NCBI RefSeq assembly: GCF_030013595.1
Contig: NZ_CP122768.1
DNA: 64,000 bases
Direction: 5' to 3' (one strand)
From: Escherichia coli
GTDB lineage: Bacteria; Pseudomonadota; Gammaproteobacteria; Enterobacterales; Enterobacteriaceae
Every line of letters begins with the position of its first letter. Within the stretch, counting starts at the first letter, position 1. Both the position numbers and the translations under genes were made by a program. Under the pieces are notes generated by a model, which did not search any database, was not told the DNA's origin, and was given only the letters and a program-made list of their open reading frames with translations. Of this stretch, positions 22,723 to 30,812 are shown piece by piece.

Positions 22723-22738
22723 TTTAACATTAATGCCA

Positions 22739-22763
22739 AAAACCGGGGAAACCCGGTTTTTTT
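22739..22763 (+). terminator. trpS Rho-independent terminator
   Basis: Hairpin aaccgggg-aaa-cccggtt followed by a T run. Confidence 0.8.
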
Positions 22764-22832
22764 ATCCTCATTTGCAATAATCCGAAAAAATGTGAAGCGT
22801 CTCGCCGTTTCCACATCTCGCAGTTGCCACTT

Positions 22833-22852
22833 ATCTTCATTTTTATGAAGAT
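22833..22852. promoter_or_regulatory. perfect inverted repeat ATCTTCAT-N4-ATGAAGAT about 30 bp upstream of yhfZ (candidate operator)
   Basis: 8-bp perfect arms read directly from the sequence; followed by TAAATATTCA (22855..22864). Confidence 0.35.
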
Positions 22853-22881
22853 ATAAATATTCACTTTATTGAAAATTTACT

Positions 22882-23787
22882 ATGCGTCGAACGTTTATCA
22901 AAAAAGAAGGCGTCGTCATCACGACACTGGCCCGTTATTTGTTGGGTGAAAAGTGCGGTAATCGACTGAAAACCATAGATGAACTGGCAACTGAATGCCG
23001 TTCATCCGTTGGCCTGACGCAGGCCGCGTTGAAAACGCTGGAATCAAGCGGAGCGATACGGATAGAACGCCGTGGGCGTAATGGCAGTTATCTGGTGGAA
23101 ATGGATAACAAAGCATTGCTGAGTCATGTGGATATCAACAATGTGGTGTGCGCGATGCCCTTGCCCTATACCCGTTTGTACGAAGGCCTGGCGAGCGGAT
23201 TGAAAGCCCAATTTGATGGCATTCCTTTTTACTATGCGCACATGCGCGGCGCGGATATTCGCGTGGAGTGTCTGCTTAATGGCGTGTATGACATGGCGGT
23301 GGTTTCCCGACTGGCGGCGGAAAGTTATCTCACGCAAAAAGGGTTATGCCTCGCGCTGGAGCTGGGGCCGCACACCTACGTTGGCGAGCACCAGTTGATT
23401 TGCCGTAAAGGCGAGTCCGCAAACGTGAAGCGCGTGGGGCTGGATAACCGTTCGGCGGATCAGAAAATCATGACCGATGTCTTTTTTGGCGATAGTGATG
23501 TGGAACGTGTCGATCTCTCTTATCACGAGAGTTTACAACGCATTGTTAAAGGCGATGTCGATGCGGTTATCTGGAACGTGGTGGCGGAAAACGAACTGAC
23601 CATGCTGGGATTAGAAGCGACGCCGCTCACAGACGATCCGCGATTTTTACAGGCCACCGAAGCCGTGGTTTTGACGCGAGTCGATGATTACCCGATGCAA
23701 CAATTGCTGCGTGCAGTTGTTGATAAACAGGCCCTGCTTGCCCATCAACAACGAGTGGTCTGTGGGGAACAGGAACCCAGTTATTAA
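22882..23787 (+). CDS. yhfZ: putative transcriptional regulator YhfZ (N-terminal winged-helix-like region)
   Basis: 301 aa; first gene of the yhf cluster as in E. coli. Confidence 0.85.
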   Translation: MRRTFIKKEGVVITTLARYLLGEKCGNRLKTIDELATECRSSVGLTQAALKTLESSGAIRIERRGRNGSYLVEMDNKALLSHVDINNVVCAMPLPYTRLYEGLASGLKAQFDGIPFYYAHMRGADIRVECLLNGVYDMAVVSRLAAESYLTQKGLCLALELGPHTYVGEHQLICRKGESANVKRVGLDNRSADQKIMTDVFFGDSDVERVDLSYHESLQRIVKGDVDAVIWNVVAENELTMLGLEATPLTDDPRFLQATEAVVLTRVDDYPMQQLLRAVVDKQALLAHQQRVVCGEQEPSY

Positions 23788-23803: not shown

Positions 23804-24166
23804 ATGGAAACCAGACTCAACCTGCTTTGCGATGCAGGCGTTATTGATAAGGACATCTGCAAAGGCATGATGCAGGTCGTCAACGTACTGGAAACAGAGT
23901 GTCATCTACCGGTGCGCAGCGAGCAAGGAATGATGGCGATGACACATATGGCGAGCGCACTGATGCGCAGTCGCCGTGGTGAAGAAATAGAGCCGCTGGA
24001 CGCCGAATTGCTGGCAGAACTGGCGCAATCCAGCCACTGGCAAGCCGTTGTGCAATTGCATCAGGTGTTGTTGAAGGAATTTACACTGGAAGTTAACCCG
24101 TGTGAAGAAGGCTATTTGCTGGCCAACCTTTATGGATTATGGATGGCTGCTAACGAAGAGGTTTGA
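23804..24166 (+). CDS. yhfY: YhfY, small PRD-like protein, 120 aa
   Basis: ATG at 23804 (METRLNLLCDAGVIDKD...); ORF track extends upstream into yhfZ. Confidence 0.8.
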   Translation: METRLNLLCDAGVIDKDICKGMMQVVNVLETECHLPVRSEQGMMAMTHMASALMRSRRGEEIEPLDAELLAELAQSSHWQAVVQLHQVLLKEFTLEVNPCEEGYLLANLYGLWMAANEEV

Positions 24167-24196
24167 AGCTCCCGACAAATCCACGTCGCACAACCT

Positions 24197-24220
24197 AAAT
24201 ATTCAAAAAAATGAATATTT
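24197..24220. promoter_or_regulatory. perfect inverted repeat AAATATTCA-N6-TGAATATTT 30 bp upstream of yhfX (candidate operator)
   Basis: 9-bp perfect arms; a third ATTCA half-site follows at 24222..24226. Confidence 0.4.
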
Positions 24221-24249
24221 AATTCAAGGAACAGAAACGAGGCAACAAG

Positions 24250-25413
24250 ATGTTTGTAGAAGCATTGAAACGCCAGAACCCGGCGCTAATTTCCGCCGCA
24301 CTAAGCTTGTGGCAAAAGGGCAAGATCGCCCCGGACAGCTGGGTGATCGACGTGGATCAGATACTGGAAAACGGTAAGCGGCTGATTGAGACGGCGCGGC
24401 TTTACGGCATTGAACTGTATCTGATGACCAAGCAGTTTGGTCGTAATCCGTGGCTGGCGGAAAAACTGCTGCCATTAGGCTACAGCGGCATTGTGGCGGT
24501 GGATTACAAAGAGGCGCGAGTCATGCGCCGCGCCGGTTTGCCGGTGGCGCATCAGGGGCATCTGGTACAAATCCCTTGTCATCAGGTTGCTGACGCCGTT
24601 GCACAGGGCACCGACGTCATCACCGTGTTTACTCTCGACAAAGCGCGGGAAGTTTCTGCGGCAGCGGTGAAGGCCGGACGTGTCCAGTCTGTGCTGCTAA
24701 AAGTTTATAGCGACGCTGATTTTCTTTATCCGGGGCAGGAGAGCGGTTTTGCCCTCCAGGTGTTGCCGGATATTGTCGCCGAAATCCAGAATCTGCCGGG
24801 GCTACATTTGGCGGGACTTACCCATTTCCCTTGCCTGCTTTGGGATGAGGCTGCCAGGAAAGTTTTGCCGACACCGAATCTTCACACGCTGGTACAAGCA
24901 CGGGATCAACTGGCGAAATCTGGTATTGCGATTGAGCAACTGAATGCGCCTTCAGCGACCAGTTGCACTTCGCTGCCGATGCTGGCGCAATACGGTGTGA
25001 CTCATGCCGAACCCGGTCATGCGCTGACGGGCACTATTCCGGCAAACCAGCAGGGCGATCAGCCTGAACGTATCGCGATGCTTTGGTTAAGTGAAATTTC
25101 CCACCATTTCCGTGGCGACAGCTACTGCTACGGCGGCGGTTACTACCGTCGTGGTCACGCGCAACATGCGCTGGTGTTTACGCCAGAAAATCAAAAGATT
25201 ACTGAAACCAATCTCAAAACTGTGGATGACAGCAGTATCGACTACACCCTGCCGCTGGCAGGCGAGTTTCCGGTAAGCAGTGCAGTAGTGCTCTGTTTTC
25301 GCACGCAGATTTTTGTCACCCGTAGCGATGTGGTGCTGGTGTCTGGTATTCATCGTGGCGAACCGGAAATCGTCGGTCGTTATGACAGCCTCGGCAACCC
25401 TCTGGAGGCGTAA
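24250..25413 (+). CDS. yhfX: YhfX, alanine-racemase-fold (fold-type III) PLP enzyme, substrate unknown
   Basis: 387 aa; N-terminal TIM-barrel-like region with candidate PLP lysine (LYLMTKQFG). Confidence 0.85.
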   Translation: MFVEALKRQNPALISAALSLWQKGKIAPDSWVIDVDQILENGKRLIETARLYGIELYLMTKQFGRNPWLAEKLLPLGYSGIVAVDYKEARVMRRAGLPVAHQGHLVQIPCHQVADAVAQGTDVITVFTLDKAREVSAAAVKAGRVQSVLLKVYSDADFLYPGQESGFALQVLPDIVAEIQNLPGLHLAGLTHFPCLLWDEAARKVLPTPNLHTLVQARDQLAKSGIAIEQLNAPSATSCTSLPMLAQYGVTHAEPGHALTGTIPANQQGDQPERIAMLWLSEISHHFRGDSYCYGGGYYRRGHAQHALVFTPENQKITETNLKTVDDSSIDYTLPLAGEFPVSSAVVLCFRTQIFVTRSDVVLVSGIHRGEPEIVGRYDSLGNPLEA

Positions 25414-26640
25414 ATGGCGCGATTTGTGGTGTTAGTGATTGATAGCTTTGGCGTAGGGGCAATGAAAGATGTCACGTTGGTGCGTCCGCAGGATGCCGGG
25501 GCGAATACCTGTGGTCACATCCTGAGCCAGTTGCCGCATTTGCAGCTATCAGCGCTGGAGAAGCTGGGGCTAATCAACGCATTGGGTTATGCACCAGGTG
25601 ATATGCAACCGTCAGATTCCGCAACCTGGGGGGTGGCAGAACTGCAACATGAAGGTGGCGATACCTTTATGGGGCATCAGGAAATTTTAGGCACGCGTCC
25701 GTTACCACCGCTGCGGATGCCTTTTCGCGATGTGATTGACCGTGTTGAGCAGGCATTAGTTTCCGCTGGCTGGCAGGTTGCGCGCCGTGGCGAAGAGTTA
25801 CAGTTTCTGTGGGTCAATCAGGCGGTTGCGATTGGCGATAATCTCGAGGCGGATTTAGGCCAGGTCTATAACATCACCGCCAATCTCTCTGTGATCTCCT
25901 TTGACGACGCAATCAAAATTGGTCGTATCGTGCGTGAGCAGGTACAGGTCGGTCGGGTCATTACATTTGGTGGCCTGTTAGCGGACAGCCAGCGCATTCT
26001 CGATGCCGCAGAAAGTAAAGAAGGGCGATTTATTGGTATCAACGCGCCGCGTTCTGGCGCTTATGACAACGGCTTCCAGGTCGTGCATATGGGCTACGGC
26101 GTCGATGAGAAAGTACAAGTGCCGCAAAAACTGTATGAAGCGGGCGTGCCAACCGTGCTGGTGGGTAAGGTGGCGGATATCGTCAGCAATCCTTATGGCG
26201 TGAGCTGGCAAAACCTGGTGGATAGCCAGCGGATTATGGATATCACCCTCGACGAATTTAACACGCATCCGACGGCGTTTATTTGCACCAATATCCAGGA
26301 AACCGACCTCGCTGGTCACGCGGAAGACGTCGCACGTTATGCCGAACGTTTGCAGGTCGTTGACCGTAACCTTGCCCGGCTTATTGAGGCGATGCAGCCA
26401 GATGATTGCCTGGTCGTGATGGCGGATCACGGTAACGATCCGACCATTGGTCACAGCCACCATACCCGCGAAGTGGTGCCAGTGCTGGTTTATCAGCAAG
26501 GGATGGTCGCTACGCAGCTCGGTGTGCGCACCACGCTTTCTGATGTGGGGGCTACCGTATGTGAAGTTTTCCGCGCGCCACCGCCACAAAATGGTCGCTC
26601 TTTTCTTTCCTCCCTCCGGTTTGCAGGAGACACCCTATGA
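25414..26640 (+). CDS. yhfW: YhfW, phosphopentomutase-like metalloenzyme
   Basis: 408 aa; start abuts the yhfX stop. Confidence 0.85.
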
Positions 26641-27515
26641 GTTTTGATCCGACGGGTTACACCCTCGCCCATGAGCATCTGCATATTGATCTCTCCGGCT
26701 TTAAAAACAACGTGGACTGCCGCCTTGATCAGTATGCGTTCATTTGCCAGGAGATGAACGACCTGATGGCCCGGGGCGTGCGTAATGTGATTGAGATGAC
26801 CAACCGTTACATGGGGCGCAATGCGCAATTTATGCTCGATGTAATGCACGCGACGGGGATCAACGTGGTGGCCTGCACCGGTTATTACCAGGACGCGTTT
26901 TTCCCGGAACATGTGGCGACCCGCAGCGTGCAGGAACTGGCGCAGGAGATGATCGATGAAATTGAACAGGGTATCGATGGCACGGAACTGAAAGCCGGGA
27001 TCATCGCGGAGATCGGCTCCAGCGAAGGGAAGATTACGCCGCTGGAAGAGAAGGTATTTATTGCCGCCGCGCTGGCACATAACCAGACCGGACGCCCGAT
27101 CTCCACGCATACGTCGTTCAGCACGATGGGGCTGGAGCAACTGGCTCTGTTGCAAGCCCACGGGGTTGATCTTTCGCGCGTCACCGTTGGTCACTGCGAT
27201 CTGAAAGACAACCTCGACAACATTTTGAAGATGATCGATCTCGGCGCGTATGTGCAGTTCGACACCATCGGCAAGAACAGTTACTACCCGGACGAAAAGC
27301 GCATTGCGATGCTCCACGCGCTACGTGACCGTGGTTTGCTGAACCGCGTCATGCTGTCGATGGATATTACGCGCCGCTCCCATTTAAAAGCCAACGGTGG
27401 TTATGGCTATGACTATTTATTGACCACCTTTATTCCGCAATTGCGCCAGTCAGGATTCAGTCAGGCCGATGTGGATGTGATGTTACGTGAAACTCCCTCT
27501 CAATTTTTCCAATAA
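26637..27515 (+). CDS. php: phosphotriesterase-homology protein (amidohydrolase superfamily, binuclear metal centre)
   Basis: 292 aa; N-terminal HxH metal motif ([12 protein letters not shown]); ATGA overlap with yhfW. Confidence 0.9.
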
Positions 27516-27525
27516 GGACAGACTC

Positions 27526-27879
27526 ATGAAAAAGATTGGTGTTGCAGGCTTACAGCGTGAGCAGATTAAAAAAACCATTGAAGCGACGGCTCCTGGCTGT
27601 TTTGAAGTTTTCATTCACAACGACATGGAAGCGGCAATGAAAGTGAAATCCGGGCAACTGGATTACTACATCGGCGCGTGTAATACCGGTGCGGGCGCGG
27701 CATTGTCGATTGCCATCGCGGTGATTGGCTATAATAAAAGTTGCACCATTGCCAAGCCGGGCATTAAAGCGAAAGACGAACATATCGCCAAAATGATCGC
27801 CGAAGGGAAAGTGGCGTTTGGGCTTTCCGTTGAGCACGTCGAACATGCGATTCCGATGCTGATTAACCATCTGAAATAA
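27526..27879 (+). CDS. yhfU: YhfU, small protein of unknown function, 117 aa
   Basis: ATG at 27526 with AAGGA Shine-Dalgarno; ORF track extends upstream into php. Confidence 0.8.
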   Translation: MKKIGVAGLQREQIKKTIEATAPGCFEVFIHNDMEAAMKVKSGQLDYYIGACNTGAGAALSIAIAVIGYNKSCTIAKPGIKAKDEHIAKMIAEGKVAFGLSVEHVEHAIPMLINHLK

Positions 27880-27890
27880 AAGGCACGACT

Positions 27891-29195
27891 ATGGATCTGT
27901 ATATTCAGATTATCGTGGTGGCGTGCCTGACGGGTATGACATCGCTTCTGGCGCATCGCTCGGCGGCCGTTTTTCATGACGGTATCCGCCCGATCCTGCC
28001 GCAACTGATTGAAGGCTATATGAACCGTCGCGAGGCGGGGAGTATCGCTTTTGGTCTGAGCATTGGTTTTGTGGCCTCGGTGGGGATCTCGTTTACCCTG
28101 AAAACCGGGCTGCTCAACGCATGGTTACTCTTTCTTCCTACCGATATCCTCGGCGTACTGGCGATAAACAGCCTGATGGCGTTTGGTCTTGGCGCTATCT
28201 GGGGCGTGTTGATCCTTACTTGCCTGTTGCCGGTAAACCAGCTGCTGACCGCGCTACCGGTGGATGTATTAGGTAGCCTGGGGGAATTAAGCTCACCGGT
28301 GGTTTCAGCTTTTGCACTGTTCCCGCTGGTGGCGATTTTCTACCAGTTTGGCTGGAAGCAAAGTCTGATCGCCGCCGTGGTGGTACTGATGACCCGTGTG
28401 GTGGTAGTGCGCTATTTCCCGCATCTCAATCCGGAATCCATCGAAATCTTTATTGGCATGGTGATGCTGCTGGGGATCGCGATAACTCACGACCTGCGTC
28501 ATCGTGATGAAAATGATATTGATGCCAGCGGGCTTTCGGTGTTTGAAGAACGCACGTCGCGGATTATCAAAAACTTACCGTATATCGCCATCGTGGGAGC
28601 GCTGATTGCCGCCGTTGCCAGCATGAAGATTTTTGCTGGCAGTGAAGTGTCGATCTTCACACTGGAGAAAGCATATTCCGCAGGCGTAACGCCGGAACAA
28701 TCACAAACGCTGATTAACCAGGCAGCTCTGGCGGAATTTATGCGCGGGCTGGGTTTTGTACCGTTGATTGCCACCACCGCGTTAGCCACTGGTGTGTATG
28801 CAGTTGCGGGCTTTACCTTTGTTTATGCGGTGGGCTATCTCTCGCCGAATCCGATGGTTGCAGCGGTATTAGGCGCAGTGGTTATTTCGGCGGAAGTCTT
28901 GCTGCTTCGTTCGATCGGCAAATGGCTGGGACGCTACCCGTCGGTACGTAATGCGTCGGATAACATCCGTAACGCCATGAATATGCTGATGGAAGTGGCG
29001 CTGCTGGTCGGTTCGATTTTCGCAGCAATTAAGATGGCGGGTTATACCGGATTCTCTATCGCAGTTGCCATTTACTTCCTCAACGAATCCCTGGGCCGTC
29101 CGGTACAGAAAATGGCGGCACCAGTCGTAGCCGTAATGATCACCGGTATTCTGCTGAATGTTCTTTACTGGTTTGGCTTGTTCGTTCCGGCTTAA
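27891..29195 (+). CDS. yhfT: YhfT, polytopic inner-membrane protein (putative transporter)
   Basis: 434 aa, hydrophobic throughout with about 11-12 predicted helices. Confidence 0.85.
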   Translation: MDLYIQIIVVACLTGMTSLLAHRSAAVFHDGIRPILPQLIEGYMNRREAGSIAFGLSIGFVASVGISFTLKTGLLNAWLLFLPTDILGVLAINSLMAFGLGAIWGVLILTCLLPVNQLLTALPVDVLGSLGELSSPVVSAFALFPLVAIFYQFGWKQSLIAAVVVLMTRVVVVRYFPHLNPESIEIFIGMVMLLGIAITHDLRHRDENDIDASGLSVFEERTSRIIKNLPYIAIVGALIAAVASMKIFAGSEVSIFTLEKAYSAGVTPEQSQTLINQAALAEFMRGLGFVPLIATTALATGVYAVAGFTFVYAVGYLSPNPMVAAVLGAVVISAEVLLLRSIGKWLGRYPSVRNASDNIRNAMNMLMEVALLVGSIFAAIKMAGYTGFSIAVAIYFLNESLGRPVQKMAAPVVAVMITGILLNVLYWFGLFVPA

Positions 29196-29206
29196 GGAAG
29201 GCACCT

Positions 29207-30292
29207 ATGAAGACGTTTCCTCTGCAAAGCCTGACGCTTATTGAGGCGCAGCAAAAGCAGTTTGCGCTGGTGGACAGCATTTGTCGTCATTTTCCCGGGA
29301 GCGAGTTTCTTGCTGGCGGTGATTTAGGCTTAACGCCGGGGCTAAACCAGCCGCGCATTACCCAGCGTGTGGAACAGGTGCTGGCTGATGCATTTCACGC
29401 ACAGGCCGCGGCGCTGGTGCAGGGCGCGGGTACTGGCGCGATTCGTGCGGCGTTGGCGGCTTTGCTCAAACCGGGGCAGCGTCTTCTGGTGCATGACGCG
29501 CCTGTTTACCCGACGACTCAGGTCATTATTGAGCAGATGGGGCTGACGCTTATCACTGCTGATTTCAATGACCTGTTGGCACTGAAGCAGGTTGTCGACG
29601 AGCAACAACCAGATGCCGCGCTGGTGCAGCATACGCGCCAGCAGCCGCAGGACGGGTACATTCTGGCAGATGTGCTGGCAACGTTGCGCTCGGCTGGCGT
29701 TCCTGCATTAACCGATGACAACTATGCGGTGATGAAAGTGGCGCGAATTGGCTGCGAATGCGGGGCAAATGTCTCGACTTTTTCCTGCTTCAAGCTGTTT
29801 GGGCCGGAGGGTGTTGGCGCGGTGGTAGGTGATGCCGATGTTATTAGTCGGATTCGCGCCACGCTCTATTCCGGCGGCAGCCAGATTCAGGGCGCTCAGG
29901 CGCTGGAAGTCTTGCGTGGGCTGGTGTTTGCGCCAGTGATGCACGCGGTGCAGGCGGGGGTATCTGAACGGTTGCTGGCTTTGCTTAACGGCGGCGCGGT
30001 GGCGGAAGTGAAAAGCGCCGTCATTGCCAATGCACAGTCGAAGGTATTGATTGTGGAGTTTCATCAGCCGATTGCCGTCAGAGTGCTGGAAGAGGCGCAG
30101 AAACTCGGTGCCTTGCCTTACCCGGTTGGTGCAGAGTCGAAATATGAAATCCCGCCGCTCTTTTATCGACTTTCCGGAACGTTTCGCCAGGCGAATCCGC
30201 AGTTAGAACATTGCGCGATTCGCATTAACCCAAATCGCAGCGGTGAAGAGACGGTGCTGCGGATTTTGCGTGAGAGTATTGCCAGTATTTAA
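29207..30292 (+). CDS. yhfS: YhfS, putative fold-type I PLP-dependent enzyme
   Basis: 361 aa; candidate PLP-lysine region STFSCFKLFG. Confidence 0.85.
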   Translation: MKTFPLQSLTLIEAQQKQFALVDSICRHFPGSEFLAGGDLGLTPGLNQPRITQRVEQVLADAFHAQAAALVQGAGTGAIRAALAALLKPGQRLLVHDAPVYPTTQVIIEQMGLTLITADFNDLLALKQVVDEQQPDAALVQHTRQQPQDGYILADVLATLRSAGVPALTDDNYAVMKVARIGCECGANVSTFSCFKLFGPEGVGAVVGDADVISRIRATLYSGGSQIQGAQALEVLRGLVFAPVMHAVQAGVSERLLALLNGGAVAEVKSAVIANAQSKVLIVEFHQPIAVRVLEEAQKLGALPYPVGAESKYEIPPLFYRLSGTFRQANPQLEHCAIRINPNRSGEETVLRILRESIASI

Positions 30293-30333
30293 TCTTGTGC
30301 ATGATGTTTTCGAAAAGAATGCAGAAATAAATA

Positions 30334-30357
30334 CGCCCTCGGGTAACCCCGAGGGCG
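30334..30357. terminator. hairpin between yhfS and yhfL (likely yhfL terminator, bidirectional)
   Basis: 10-bp perfect stem cgccctcggg/cccgagggcg with 4-nt loop; T-rich on the minus-strand downstream side. Confidence 0.65.
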
Positions 30358-30398
30358 TCAGGCAATTAAACCGGTGTTAGCCGATTTCTGTCAGAGAC

Positions 30399-30566
30399 TT
30401 ACTGTGCAGTAGGACCGCAACCGCCAATGATTTTAGAAATAGAAATTGCCGGGTGCAGCAGGTAGTCGTAAGAGCAGTTCTTATCACGGTTTTCAATATG
30501 ACCAGTACATGCAGTTAACGTAGCCAGTACTGCGCCTACCAGTGCAACTTTAATAAATTTGTTCAT
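30399..30566 (-). CDS. yhfL: small lipoprotein YhfL, 55 aa (below ORF-track threshold)
   Basis: Hand translation MNKFIKVALVGAVLATLTACTGHIENRDKNCSYDYLLHPAISISKIIGGCGPTAQ*; lipobox LTAC. Confidence 0.85.
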   Translation of the reverse strand: MNKFIKVALVGAVLATLTACTGHIENRDKNCSYDYLLHPAISISKIIGGCGPTAQ

Positions 30567-30812
30567 TTACATTCCCTATGTATTATATATTAATTAATAT
30601 TCATTGATTATATGAATATAAGCAGACTGCTCATTAAGAACGATACAGGAATATTTAATTAGCGTCAGTGAGTGAATGGCTTAATTTTGTAAGTCGCTGT
30701 AACGGTGAATATAACCCATTAGCAGATAATATTTATTAAGGGGTTATGTTTTATTTGCTGAATATATAAAAAGAGTCATTAAGAAGGCCAGAATTCTCTG
30801 GCCCGGGTTACA

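Follow-up and report, generated by a model that had tools for sequence, protein, structure and literature searches.

Three copies of one palindromic box in the control regions of the Escherichia coli yhf cluster, probable operators of the GntR-like regulator YhfZ

Introduction

The yhfZYXW-php-yhfUTS cluster is among the larger gene clusters of Escherichia coli without known function or regulation. In a stretch of 64,000 nucleotides (nt) of the E. coli contig NZ_CP122768.1 (assembly GCF_030013595.1), hereafter called the window, palindromes stand in front of both yhfZ, which encodes a putative regulator, and yhfX, raising the question of what these sites are and which protein reads them. A preliminary description, drawn from the letters of the window, had seen two distinct palindromes sharing a half-site and had proposed autoregulation plus operon control by one or two regulators. 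Here we establish the sites, the motif common to them, its conservation and specificity, and its co-variation with the recognition helix of YhfZ. The reading as regulatory sites serving autoregulation and operon control stands as the best one, and a single regulator is enough, because the motif accompanies the YhfZ family from phylum to phylum and becomes TACA-N6-TGTA when the start of the recognition helix changes. We consider it likely that the sites are operators of YhfZ, acting as autorepressor and as repressor of the operon.

The full-text literature held no account of YhfZ targets, of an operator or of the regulation of the cluster, and a prediction confined to databases may exist; publications on the other yhf genes, on HTH_41, on PF14502/3, on structure 2OZZ and on the combination of PRD, GntR and phosphotriesterase likewise left the operator and the YhfZ targets undescribed. 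Operators of YhfZ have apparently not been described so far for the yhf operon.

Three sites carry one motif

The sites, named O1 to O3, and the gene of their proposed binder lie as follows in the window:

22830 to 22855, no strand: O1, cTTATCTTCA-ttttta-TGAAGATAta, with TTCA at 22836-22839 and TGAA at 22846-22849; centre 39.5 nt before the yhfZ ATG
22854 to 22879, no strand: O2, TAAATATTCA-ctttat-TGAAAATTTA, an imperfect palindrome with its core at 22860-22873; centre 15.5 nt before the yhfZ ATG
24196 to 24221, no strand: O3, TAAATATTCA-aaaaaa-TGAATATTTA, a perfect palindrome (10-6-10) whose end lies 28 nt before the yhfX ATG
22882 to 23787, plus strand: yhfZ, 301 amino acids (aa), with Pfam HTH_41 (a GntR-like winged helix) and the sensor domain YhfZ_C; proposed binder of O1-O3

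The palindrome originally singled out, ATCTTCAT-tttt-ATGAAGAT at 22833-22852, is present in the window sequence, as had been described, and ends 29-30 nt before the yhfZ ATG (22882); the perfect repeat extends one base further at either end than noted, with arms of 9 base pairs (bp), TATCTTCAT and ATGAAGATA (22832-22840 and 22845-22853), around the tttt loop. A lone repeat of this kind is unremarkable. Perfect palindromes of 8-9 bp occur in the window in 58 arm/loop combinations (about 28 distinct palindromes, mostly G+C-rich and terminator-like), against 10.5 +/- 3.7 combinations in first-order Markov random sequence.

The remarkable part is the motif that the sites share. The word TAAATATTCA beside the palindrome had been reported as a copy of the left arm of the yhfX palindrome (24196-24205); this identity holds, while its position is 22854-22863 rather than 22855-22864, and what looked like a half-site copy is in fact the beginning of a whole second operator-like site, O2, abutting O1. 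The word matches three times in the window, where 0.06 matches are expected, and recurs as both arms of O3. O2 agrees with the yhfX palindrome at 20 of 26 positions (77%) in the same direction and at 88% as reverse complement, the differences falling mostly in the 6-bp spacer. The 12-base motif ATNTTCANNNNNNTGAANAT (ATnTTCA-N6-TGAAnAT) has exactly three perfect matches in the 64 kb, namely O1, O2 and O3; its bare core, TTCA-N6-TGAA, has four. Instead of two distinct palindromes, O1, O2 and O3 are therefore three copies of one motif, with a common geometry and the same core and AT-n flanks, and their consensus, the YhfZ box, reads T-W-W-A-T-n-TTCA-N6-TGAA-n-A-T-W-W-A. One helical turn (10 bp) separates the two half-site centres of a box; the centres of O1 and O2 are separated by 24 bp, and O3 lies 1.34 kb downstream of the pair.

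The box is conserved across genera and confined to yhf control regions

A scan with a YhfZ alignment, taking one genome per species, yielded 80 yhfZ loci (535 kb) from 17 or more genera, among them Escherichia, Citrobacter, Klebsiella, Pluralibacter, Trabulsiella, Buttiauxella, Cedecea, Lelliottia, Superficieibacter, Atlantibacter, Chimaeribacter, Photorhabdus, Xenorhabdus, Serratia, Providencia, Vibrio and Photobacterium. The gene order yhfZ-yhfY-yhfX-(yhfW)-php is kept across these loci, with yhfZ-yhfY-php in Vibrio.

The preliminary description had allowed that the palindromes might prove unconserved, or that such AT-rich words might be frequent by chance. The palindromes are kept from Escherichia to Vibrio and beyond, and the words are not common by chance: all 119 perfect matches to the 12-base motif in the 535 kb lie at most 130 nt upstream of yhfZ, yhfY or yhfX, and elsewhere in these loci there is none. 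The exact core TTCA-N6-TGAA occurs 174 times, about 150 of these at positions -46/-45/-44 or -22 from yhfZ or just before yhfX. O1 stands at -46/-45/-44 from the yhfZ ATG in 58 of the 80 loci and O2 at -22 in 49, and O3 is found upstream of yhfX in nearly all genera that possess this gene. The left arm of O3 and its A-tract are almost invariant; the right arm drifts between genera (TGAATAT, TGATTAT, TGATGAT, TGAAGAT). Vibrio has a single box. In the rearranged locus of Pluralibacter gergoviae (L044), where yhfY precedes yhfZ, boxes are found upstream of yhfY and of yhfX, that is, they follow the promoters.

Xenorhabdus species (L057-L081) carry in addition an operator-like sequence, ATCTTCAaaatatTGATAAT, with one mismatch; it is conserved in about 21 species, 152 nt upstream of yhfZ and at a distance of 104 bp, or about 10 helical turns, from the O1 centre. 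Four Xenorhabdus species share a further conserved near-match, ATATTCTGCAAAATGAAGAT, 1.6-2.9 kb upstream.

The box changes with the recognition helix of YhfZ

RefSeq names the yhfZ product 'GntR family transcriptional regulator YhfZ'. The only solved part of the protein is the YhfZ_C domain (PDB 2OZZ, residues 74-301). For the N-terminal domain, a profile search gave matches to winged-helix structures of the GntR/FadR kind (8pqm with E=5e-7, 1v4r, PdhR, YvoA and AraR). The YhfZ family comprises 663 representative clusters at E<=0.001, from which a distant sample of 11 homologues with 28-39% identity was taken. Most of these homologues with enough flanking sequence sit in clusters of the type YhfZ-PRD-DUF2620-YhfT-PTE-YhfS, and in almost every family member examined a PRD gene lies beside the DNA-binding regulator; one homologue is followed by a gene for a IIB protein of the phosphotransferase system (PTS).

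Sorted by the residues that start the recognition helix, the 11 distant loci carry the following sites:

Ser-Val, as in E. coli (S42-V43), in L087, L089, L091, L092 and L095: TTCA-N6-TGAA upstream, often TAAATWTTCAAAAAAATGAAAATTTA
Gly-Arg or Ala-Arg, in L090, L093, L094 and L097: TACA-N6-TGTA in four of four, with the same geometry and in the same places
Gly-Asn, in L088 (67% G+C): neither box
Ser-Arg, in L096: neither box, TTGTAT-t-ATACAA instead

The Ser-Val homologues, 28-35% identical to YhfZ and found in low-G+C hosts, have TTCA-N6-TGAA upstream in all five cases, and in L089, L091 and L092 further copies stand just past the yhfZ-like gene, close to where the following gene starts. Second copies of TACA-N6-TGTA are present in three of the four Gly/Ala-Arg loci, in front of the PRD or the PTS IIB gene. 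The step from TTCA to TACA is a change of one base per half-site, alongside a change of recognition-helix residues. In the N-terminal domain profile, the arginine of the Gly/Ala-Arg type aligns with the conserved arginine that starts the GntR/FadR recognition helix; in FadR-DNA complexes, an arginine at this place contacts a G in the half-site. Because the motif follows the family into unrelated hosts and changes with the residues that would read it, binding of YhfZ to its own boxes is the best explanation.

Among full-length representatives with a readable helix start, 13 are Ser-Val, 25 Gly-Arg, 16 Ala-Arg, 14 Ser-Arg and 5 Gly-Asn, with others besides. The Ser-Val/TTCA type of E. coli is a minority, and the Arg/TACA type is commoner.

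O1 and O2 overlie the predicted yhfZ promoter

Upstream of O1, or overlapping it, the gap between trpS and yhfZ holds these elements:

22738 to 22763, plus strand: trpS intrinsic terminator, AAAAACCGGG-gaaa-CCCGGTTTTT followed by a T-run; unchanged in seven E. coli strains
22791 to 22806, no strand: CRP-like site TGTGA-agcgtc-TCGCC (TGTGAagcgtcTCGCC), 8 of 10 consensus positions; centre 22798.5, 83.5 nt before the yhfZ ATG
22824 to 22829, plus strand: predicted -35 element TTGCCA, its TTG kept 12 nt ahead of the O1 core in 56 of 58 loci
22847 to 22852, plus strand: predicted weak -10 element GAAGAT inside the right arm of O1, deduced from the 17-bp spacing to TTGCCA and the distance to the CRP-like site

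The terminator would shield yhfZ from trpS read-through. Since this canonical structure ends trpS, yhfZ needs a promoter of its own within the 118 nt that follow. The elements listed place the predicted transcription start near 22859-22860. A consensus scan called no plus-strand promoter here, which suggests that the yhfZ promoter is weak in E. coli. Relative to that start, the CRP-like site is centred at -61.5, the class I position, O1 extends from -28 to -7 and O2 from -6 to +20, so that O2 covers the predicted start and the short leader. The alternative -10 element TATCTT in the left arm of O1 is less likely and would place the CRP-like site near -45, a non-canonical distance.

Each of the nine distant loci with a recognisable box has a near-consensus promoter (for example TTGACA-16-TAAACT), and the box begins 5-17 nt past its -10 element. 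This puts the box over the start site, a repressor position; O2 stands in the same relation to the predicted -10 element. Some distant loci have a second box in a gap of about 50 nt, beside the ribosome-binding site.

A CRP-like match of at least 8 of 10 positions is present in 68 of 81 sequences (the window and the 80 loci), in the great majority at the same position; in 56 loci exactly 44 bp separate its centre from the downstream centre of O1, and it forms a conserved block in the profile. An 8 of 10 match arises by chance in about 8% of 200-nt stretches, and it is positional conservation alone that argues for a function of the putative site. The site is kept at the same distance from Escherichia to Xenorhabdus and Providencia, and Vibrio has a TCACA half at the equivalent place. 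These patterns suggest that the yhf cluster is under catabolite control through the CRP-like site. No cAMP-CRP data on this site were found in the literature. The layout resembles class I CRP promoters of the lac type (-61.5) in having TGTGA-N6-TC.C. at a fixed distance from a weak predicted promoter of a putative catabolic cluster, the distance fitting -61.5 if transcription starts near 22860; it differs in its poor right half (TCGCC).

A sigma-54 promoter candidate, ccgtTGGCCTGACGCAGGCCGCgttg, has been listed for yhfZ (PMC2831329); it lies inside the yhfZ frame (about 23003-23028) and is irrelevant to the intergenic sites. Matches near the yhf operon in riboswitch surveys concern other coordinates.

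yhfZ lacks a recognisable Shine-Dalgarno sequence, and the 28 nt before its ATG (22854-22881) are nearly all O2 (ttgaaaatttactATG). The start codon is right, because the N-terminus is conserved in all orthologues, and translation may depend on an AU-rich, unstructured leader.

Arms are fixed and spacers free within E. coli

The trpS-yhfZ spacer is unusually polymorphic, being only 90-95% identical to the window in 2749 of 5081 genomes; E. coli strain 118UI is 100% identical to the window across the queried stretch. In seven strains, the O1 arms TATCTTCA and TGAAGATA are constant around six inner bases that read TTTTTA, AATTCC or TTTTAA, and K-12-like strains have TATCTTCA-aattcc-TGAAGATA, an 8-6-8 arrangement. 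Because the inner bases differ between strains, 8-6-8 is the conserved unit of O1, and the 8-4-8 palindrome is specific to the window strain. The O2 core ATTCA/TGAAAAT is likewise fixed in the seven strains, around a spacer of CTTTAT, TTTTAT or ATTTAC, and O3 is invariant. Ten distinct Escherichia sequences show variation at 6 of the 12 spacer positions and at 3 of the 32 positions in the 8-bp arms (Fisher p=0.007). Fixed arms around a free spacer of fixed length are the signature of a site for a dimeric protein.

Three strains, RM10466, CREC-532 and WCHEC035148 (L003, L004 and L006), have G+C-rich inserts of about 110-130 bp resembling repetitive extragenic palindromes (REP) or bacterial interspersed mosaic elements (BIME) between the trpS stop and the terminator. 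These inserts, which the window lacks, account for the BIME reported upstream of yhfZ.

In the K-12-like strain KMS2001 (L001), yhfZ is annotated as a frameshifted pseudogene. The O157:H7 genome TR01 matched the query at the trpS end only, which suggests that the yhfZ upstream region is missing from it.

Proposed mechanism

From these observations we infer that YhfZ binds O1-O3, and likewise the sign of regulation, the promoter and start positions, and the roles of CRP, YhfY and a ligand. A YhfZ dimer would sit on each box, with one GntR-like winged helix per TTCA/TGAA half-site. O1 would lie between the predicted -35 element (TTGCCA) and, at its right arm, the weak -10 element, which it overlaps, and O2 would cover the predicted start and leader; occupancy of both is proposed to block RNA polymerase and so to produce autorepression. 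Transcription of yhfZ-yhfY would be assisted by CRP, the CRP-like site giving catabolite-dependent activation. At O3, YhfZ would hold down yhfX-yhfS; possible routes are closure of an internal promoter, a roadblock and looping to O1/O2. A ligand sensed by YhfZ_C would release the repressor, possibly with input from the PRD protein YhfY.

Local regulators of the GntR superfamily (FadR, PdhR and NagR/YvoA, of the FadR and HutC subfamilies) offer the closest comparison: they are dimeric winged-helix proteins with palindromic operators of two short half-sites, with operators that overlap both the regulator's own promoter and that of the catabolic operon beside it, and with a C-terminal effector-sensing domain. 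The YhfZ boxes share with GntR-like operators a palindrome of conserved half-sites around a free spacer of fixed length, a specific location in control regions and co-variation with the regulator. YhfZ differs in its domains, as its DNA-binding domain is the separate Pfam family HTH_41 rather than PF00392 and its effector domain is YhfZ_C rather than FCD or UTRA; in its constant partnership with a stand-alone PRD protein; and in its box. The usual GntR operator follows the pattern GT-N-AC, whereas the YhfZ box is TTCA-N6-TGAA and Arg-type relatives have TACA-N6-TGTA, that is, AC...GT with a long spacer; E. coli YhfZ itself has valine at the position of the family's base-contacting arginine.

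Two promoter-proximal operators and a third more than 1 kb away within the cluster recall the multi-operator systems lac (O1/O2/O3), gal (OE/OI) and deo, as does the extra upstream copy 104 bp from O1 in Xenorhabdus. O3 differs in standing before the next transcription unit and not inside a gene, and may serve an internal promoter or a roadblock; looping at yhf is pure conjecture.

Several points weigh against autorepression and operon repression by YhfZ. The case for YhfZ as the binder is wholly comparative; the co-variation sample is small (five plus four distant loci), and the helix types of L088 and L096 come without either box. A simple consensus promoter scan found no plus-strand promoter in the trpS-yhfZ gap, and the proposed -10 element GAAGAT matches at 3 of 6 positions only. 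No convincing promoter was seen at O3. The 24-bp spacing of O1 and O2 would place the two dimers on different faces of the helix and disfavours a simple cooperative mode of binding. Genera vary in how many operators they carry: O2 is absent from Xenorhabdus, Serratia and Providencia, where O1 and O3 are present, and Photorhabdus has a degenerate O1 and keeps O2, together with an O3 whose core bears a one-base change (TGAT). Finally, the E. coli motif scan covered the 64-kb window, and other targets or binders may exist.

Alternative explanations

The reading that keeps most weight after YhfZ repression, though we consider it unlikely, has YhfZ bind the boxes as an activator or dual regulator, for example with ligand-bound activation of yhfX-yhfS from O3. 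The weak elements of the yhfZ promoter, the lack of a conserved -35-like element upstream of O3, and an O3 left arm and A-tract conserved beyond what a simple operator would lead one to expect are all in its favour. The repressor position of the box in the nine distant loci, directly after a near-consensus promoter and over the start, speaks for repression instead, as does the overlap of O1 and O2 in E. coli with the predicted -10 element and start, and activators do not usually have their box centred some 20 nt before a start such as the putative one here.

Improbable in our estimate is a more elaborate arrangement in which YhfZ and YhfY form a split PTS-linked switch that clamps the cluster by looping O1/O2 to O3, 1.34 kb away. 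The GntR-like binder with its sensor would then be controlled in trans by the stand-alone PRD protein, whose phosphorylation would come from a PTS-like transporter pair (YhfU/YhfT or a neighbouring EIIB). The evidence extends to the constant pairing of YhfZ and PRD genes and the multi-operator layout. If true, this would be an architecture undescribed for PRD proteins, whose other known examples are fusions with RNA- or DNA-binding domains. YhfY is encoded beside the regulator, in which it resembles PRD regulators such as the BglG/LicT antiterminators and the activators of the MtlR/LevR type; it differs as a separate protein of 120 aa, unfused to a DNA- or RNA-binding domain, and the yhf cluster has no pair of ribonucleic antiterminator (RAT) target and terminator. 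We found no evidence of contact between YhfY and YhfZ.

It is quite improbable that a protein other than YhfZ (a global factor such as FNR, CRP or ArgR, or an unidentified one) binds the palindromes. Nucleoid proteins commonly target AT-rich palindromes, and the FNR consensus is TTGAT-N4-ATCAA, which O1 of the window strain (TTCAT-N4-ATGAA) matches at four of five positions per half. Yet O1 has C in place of the G required by FNR and by CRP, whose consensus is TGTGA-N6-TCACA, and its inner bases vary within E. coli, K-12-like strains having TTCAA-attc-CTGAA; O1 was accordingly rejected as an FNR or CRP site. Nor would a global enterobacterial factor explain why the motif accompanies YhfZ homologues in distant low-G+C organisms and switches to TACA/TGTA with their recognition helix. 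The 535 kb contain no perfect match elsewhere.

We give very little credence to action at the RNA level, in which hairpins in the yhfZ leader and the yhfY-yhfX spacer would control translation or stability or serve as RAT-like antiterminator targets linked to YhfY. As RNA, O1 has a folding energy of -9.0 kcal/mol (z -5.4) and O3 one of -6.4 kcal/mol (z -7.1), O2 and O3 lie near start codons, and the cluster encodes a PRD protein. O2, however, folds at only -2.0 kcal/mol, and O1 is upstream of the predicted transcription start. Compensatory changes are absent: the TTCA/TGAA cores never vary, the position adjacent to the core pairs in 27% of sites, and the drift of the O3 right arm (TGATTAT, TGATGAT, TGAAGAT) against a fixed left arm breaks the stem. 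Neither a U-run nor a terminator follows O1, O2 or O3, YhfY (120 aa, PRD-like only) has no RNA-binding (CAT) domain, and an Rfam search matched no family. A terminator, attenuator or RAT hairpin was rejected on the lack of covariation, U-run and Rfam match and on the weak O2 fold.

Chance AT-rich palindromes or REP/BIME remnants devoid of function carry virtually no weight: perfect 8-bp palindromes are not rare in 64 kb, and a published survey grouped a yhfZ-upstream element with BIMEs and reported a BIME/attenuator cluster for yhfZ (PMC2965389), but the conservation of position and core over the 80 loci and beyond, with a motif count far above shuffles, refutes a chance origin for practical purposes, and the REP/BIME-like inserts are G+C-rich, directly follow the trpS stop upstream of the terminator and are unrelated to the boxes, which are AT-rich and confined to yhf control regions.

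Significance

A local repressor with palindromic operators is a textbook mechanism and not in itself surprising. What the YhfZ box adds is a set of proposed specificity determinants, with Ser42-Val43 reading TTCA and Gly/Ala-Arg reading TACA; orthogonal pairs of repressor and operator could be built on this natural one-base switch of specificity in the operator. The three-operator layout and the likely CRP dependence are directly testable, and a defined box makes a genome-wide regulon scan possible. For the position weight matrix derived from 120 unique sites, some 0.3-1 perfect matches per genome would be expected by chance. De-repression by deletion of yhfZ or by operator mutation could open the search for the substrate of the operon.

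The surrounding locus

On the plus strand, aroB-damX-dam-rpe-gph-trpS precede yhfZ-yhfY-yhfX-yhfW-php-yhfU-yhfT-yhfS, which ends at 30292. E. coli YhfY has no Pfam match at E<=0.001, whereas the gene adjoining the distant yhfZ homologues matches PF00874 (PRD). The genes downstream of yhfZ, of which yhfX to yhfS form the operon proposed to be regulated, on the evidence of open reading frames (ORFs), Pfam matches and conserved gene order, are:

23804 to 24166, plus strand: yhfY, 120 aa, a stand-alone PRD-like protein (RefSeq 'PRD domain protein'), possible co-regulator
24250 to 25413, plus strand: yhfX
25414 to 26640, plus strand: yhfW
26637 to 27515, plus strand: php
27487 to 27879, plus strand: ORF of yhfU, whose true start is probably further downstream
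27891 to 29195, plus strand: yhfT
29207 to 30292, plus strand: yhfS

In the window strain, yhfS is followed directly by yhfL and cysG-nirCDB (30293-30812). The fructoselysine genes frlABCDR are missing from this interval; in an O157:H7 strain they lie beyond yhfL, with frlA-C within the stretch compared.

A further perfect palindrome, ATATTCAT-tgattat-ATGAATAT at 30597-30619, has the 7-bp arms of O3 but sets them 9 bp apart (TTCA-N9-TGAA), and may have nothing to do with the boxes. The small gene yhfL (30568-30401 on the minus strand) follows it at a distance of 29 nt, and both ATCC BAA-196 and an O157:H7 strain have the palindrome unaltered. Of 5426 genomes, 5412 contain the yhfL region, compared with 5081 that have the region upstream of yhfZ.

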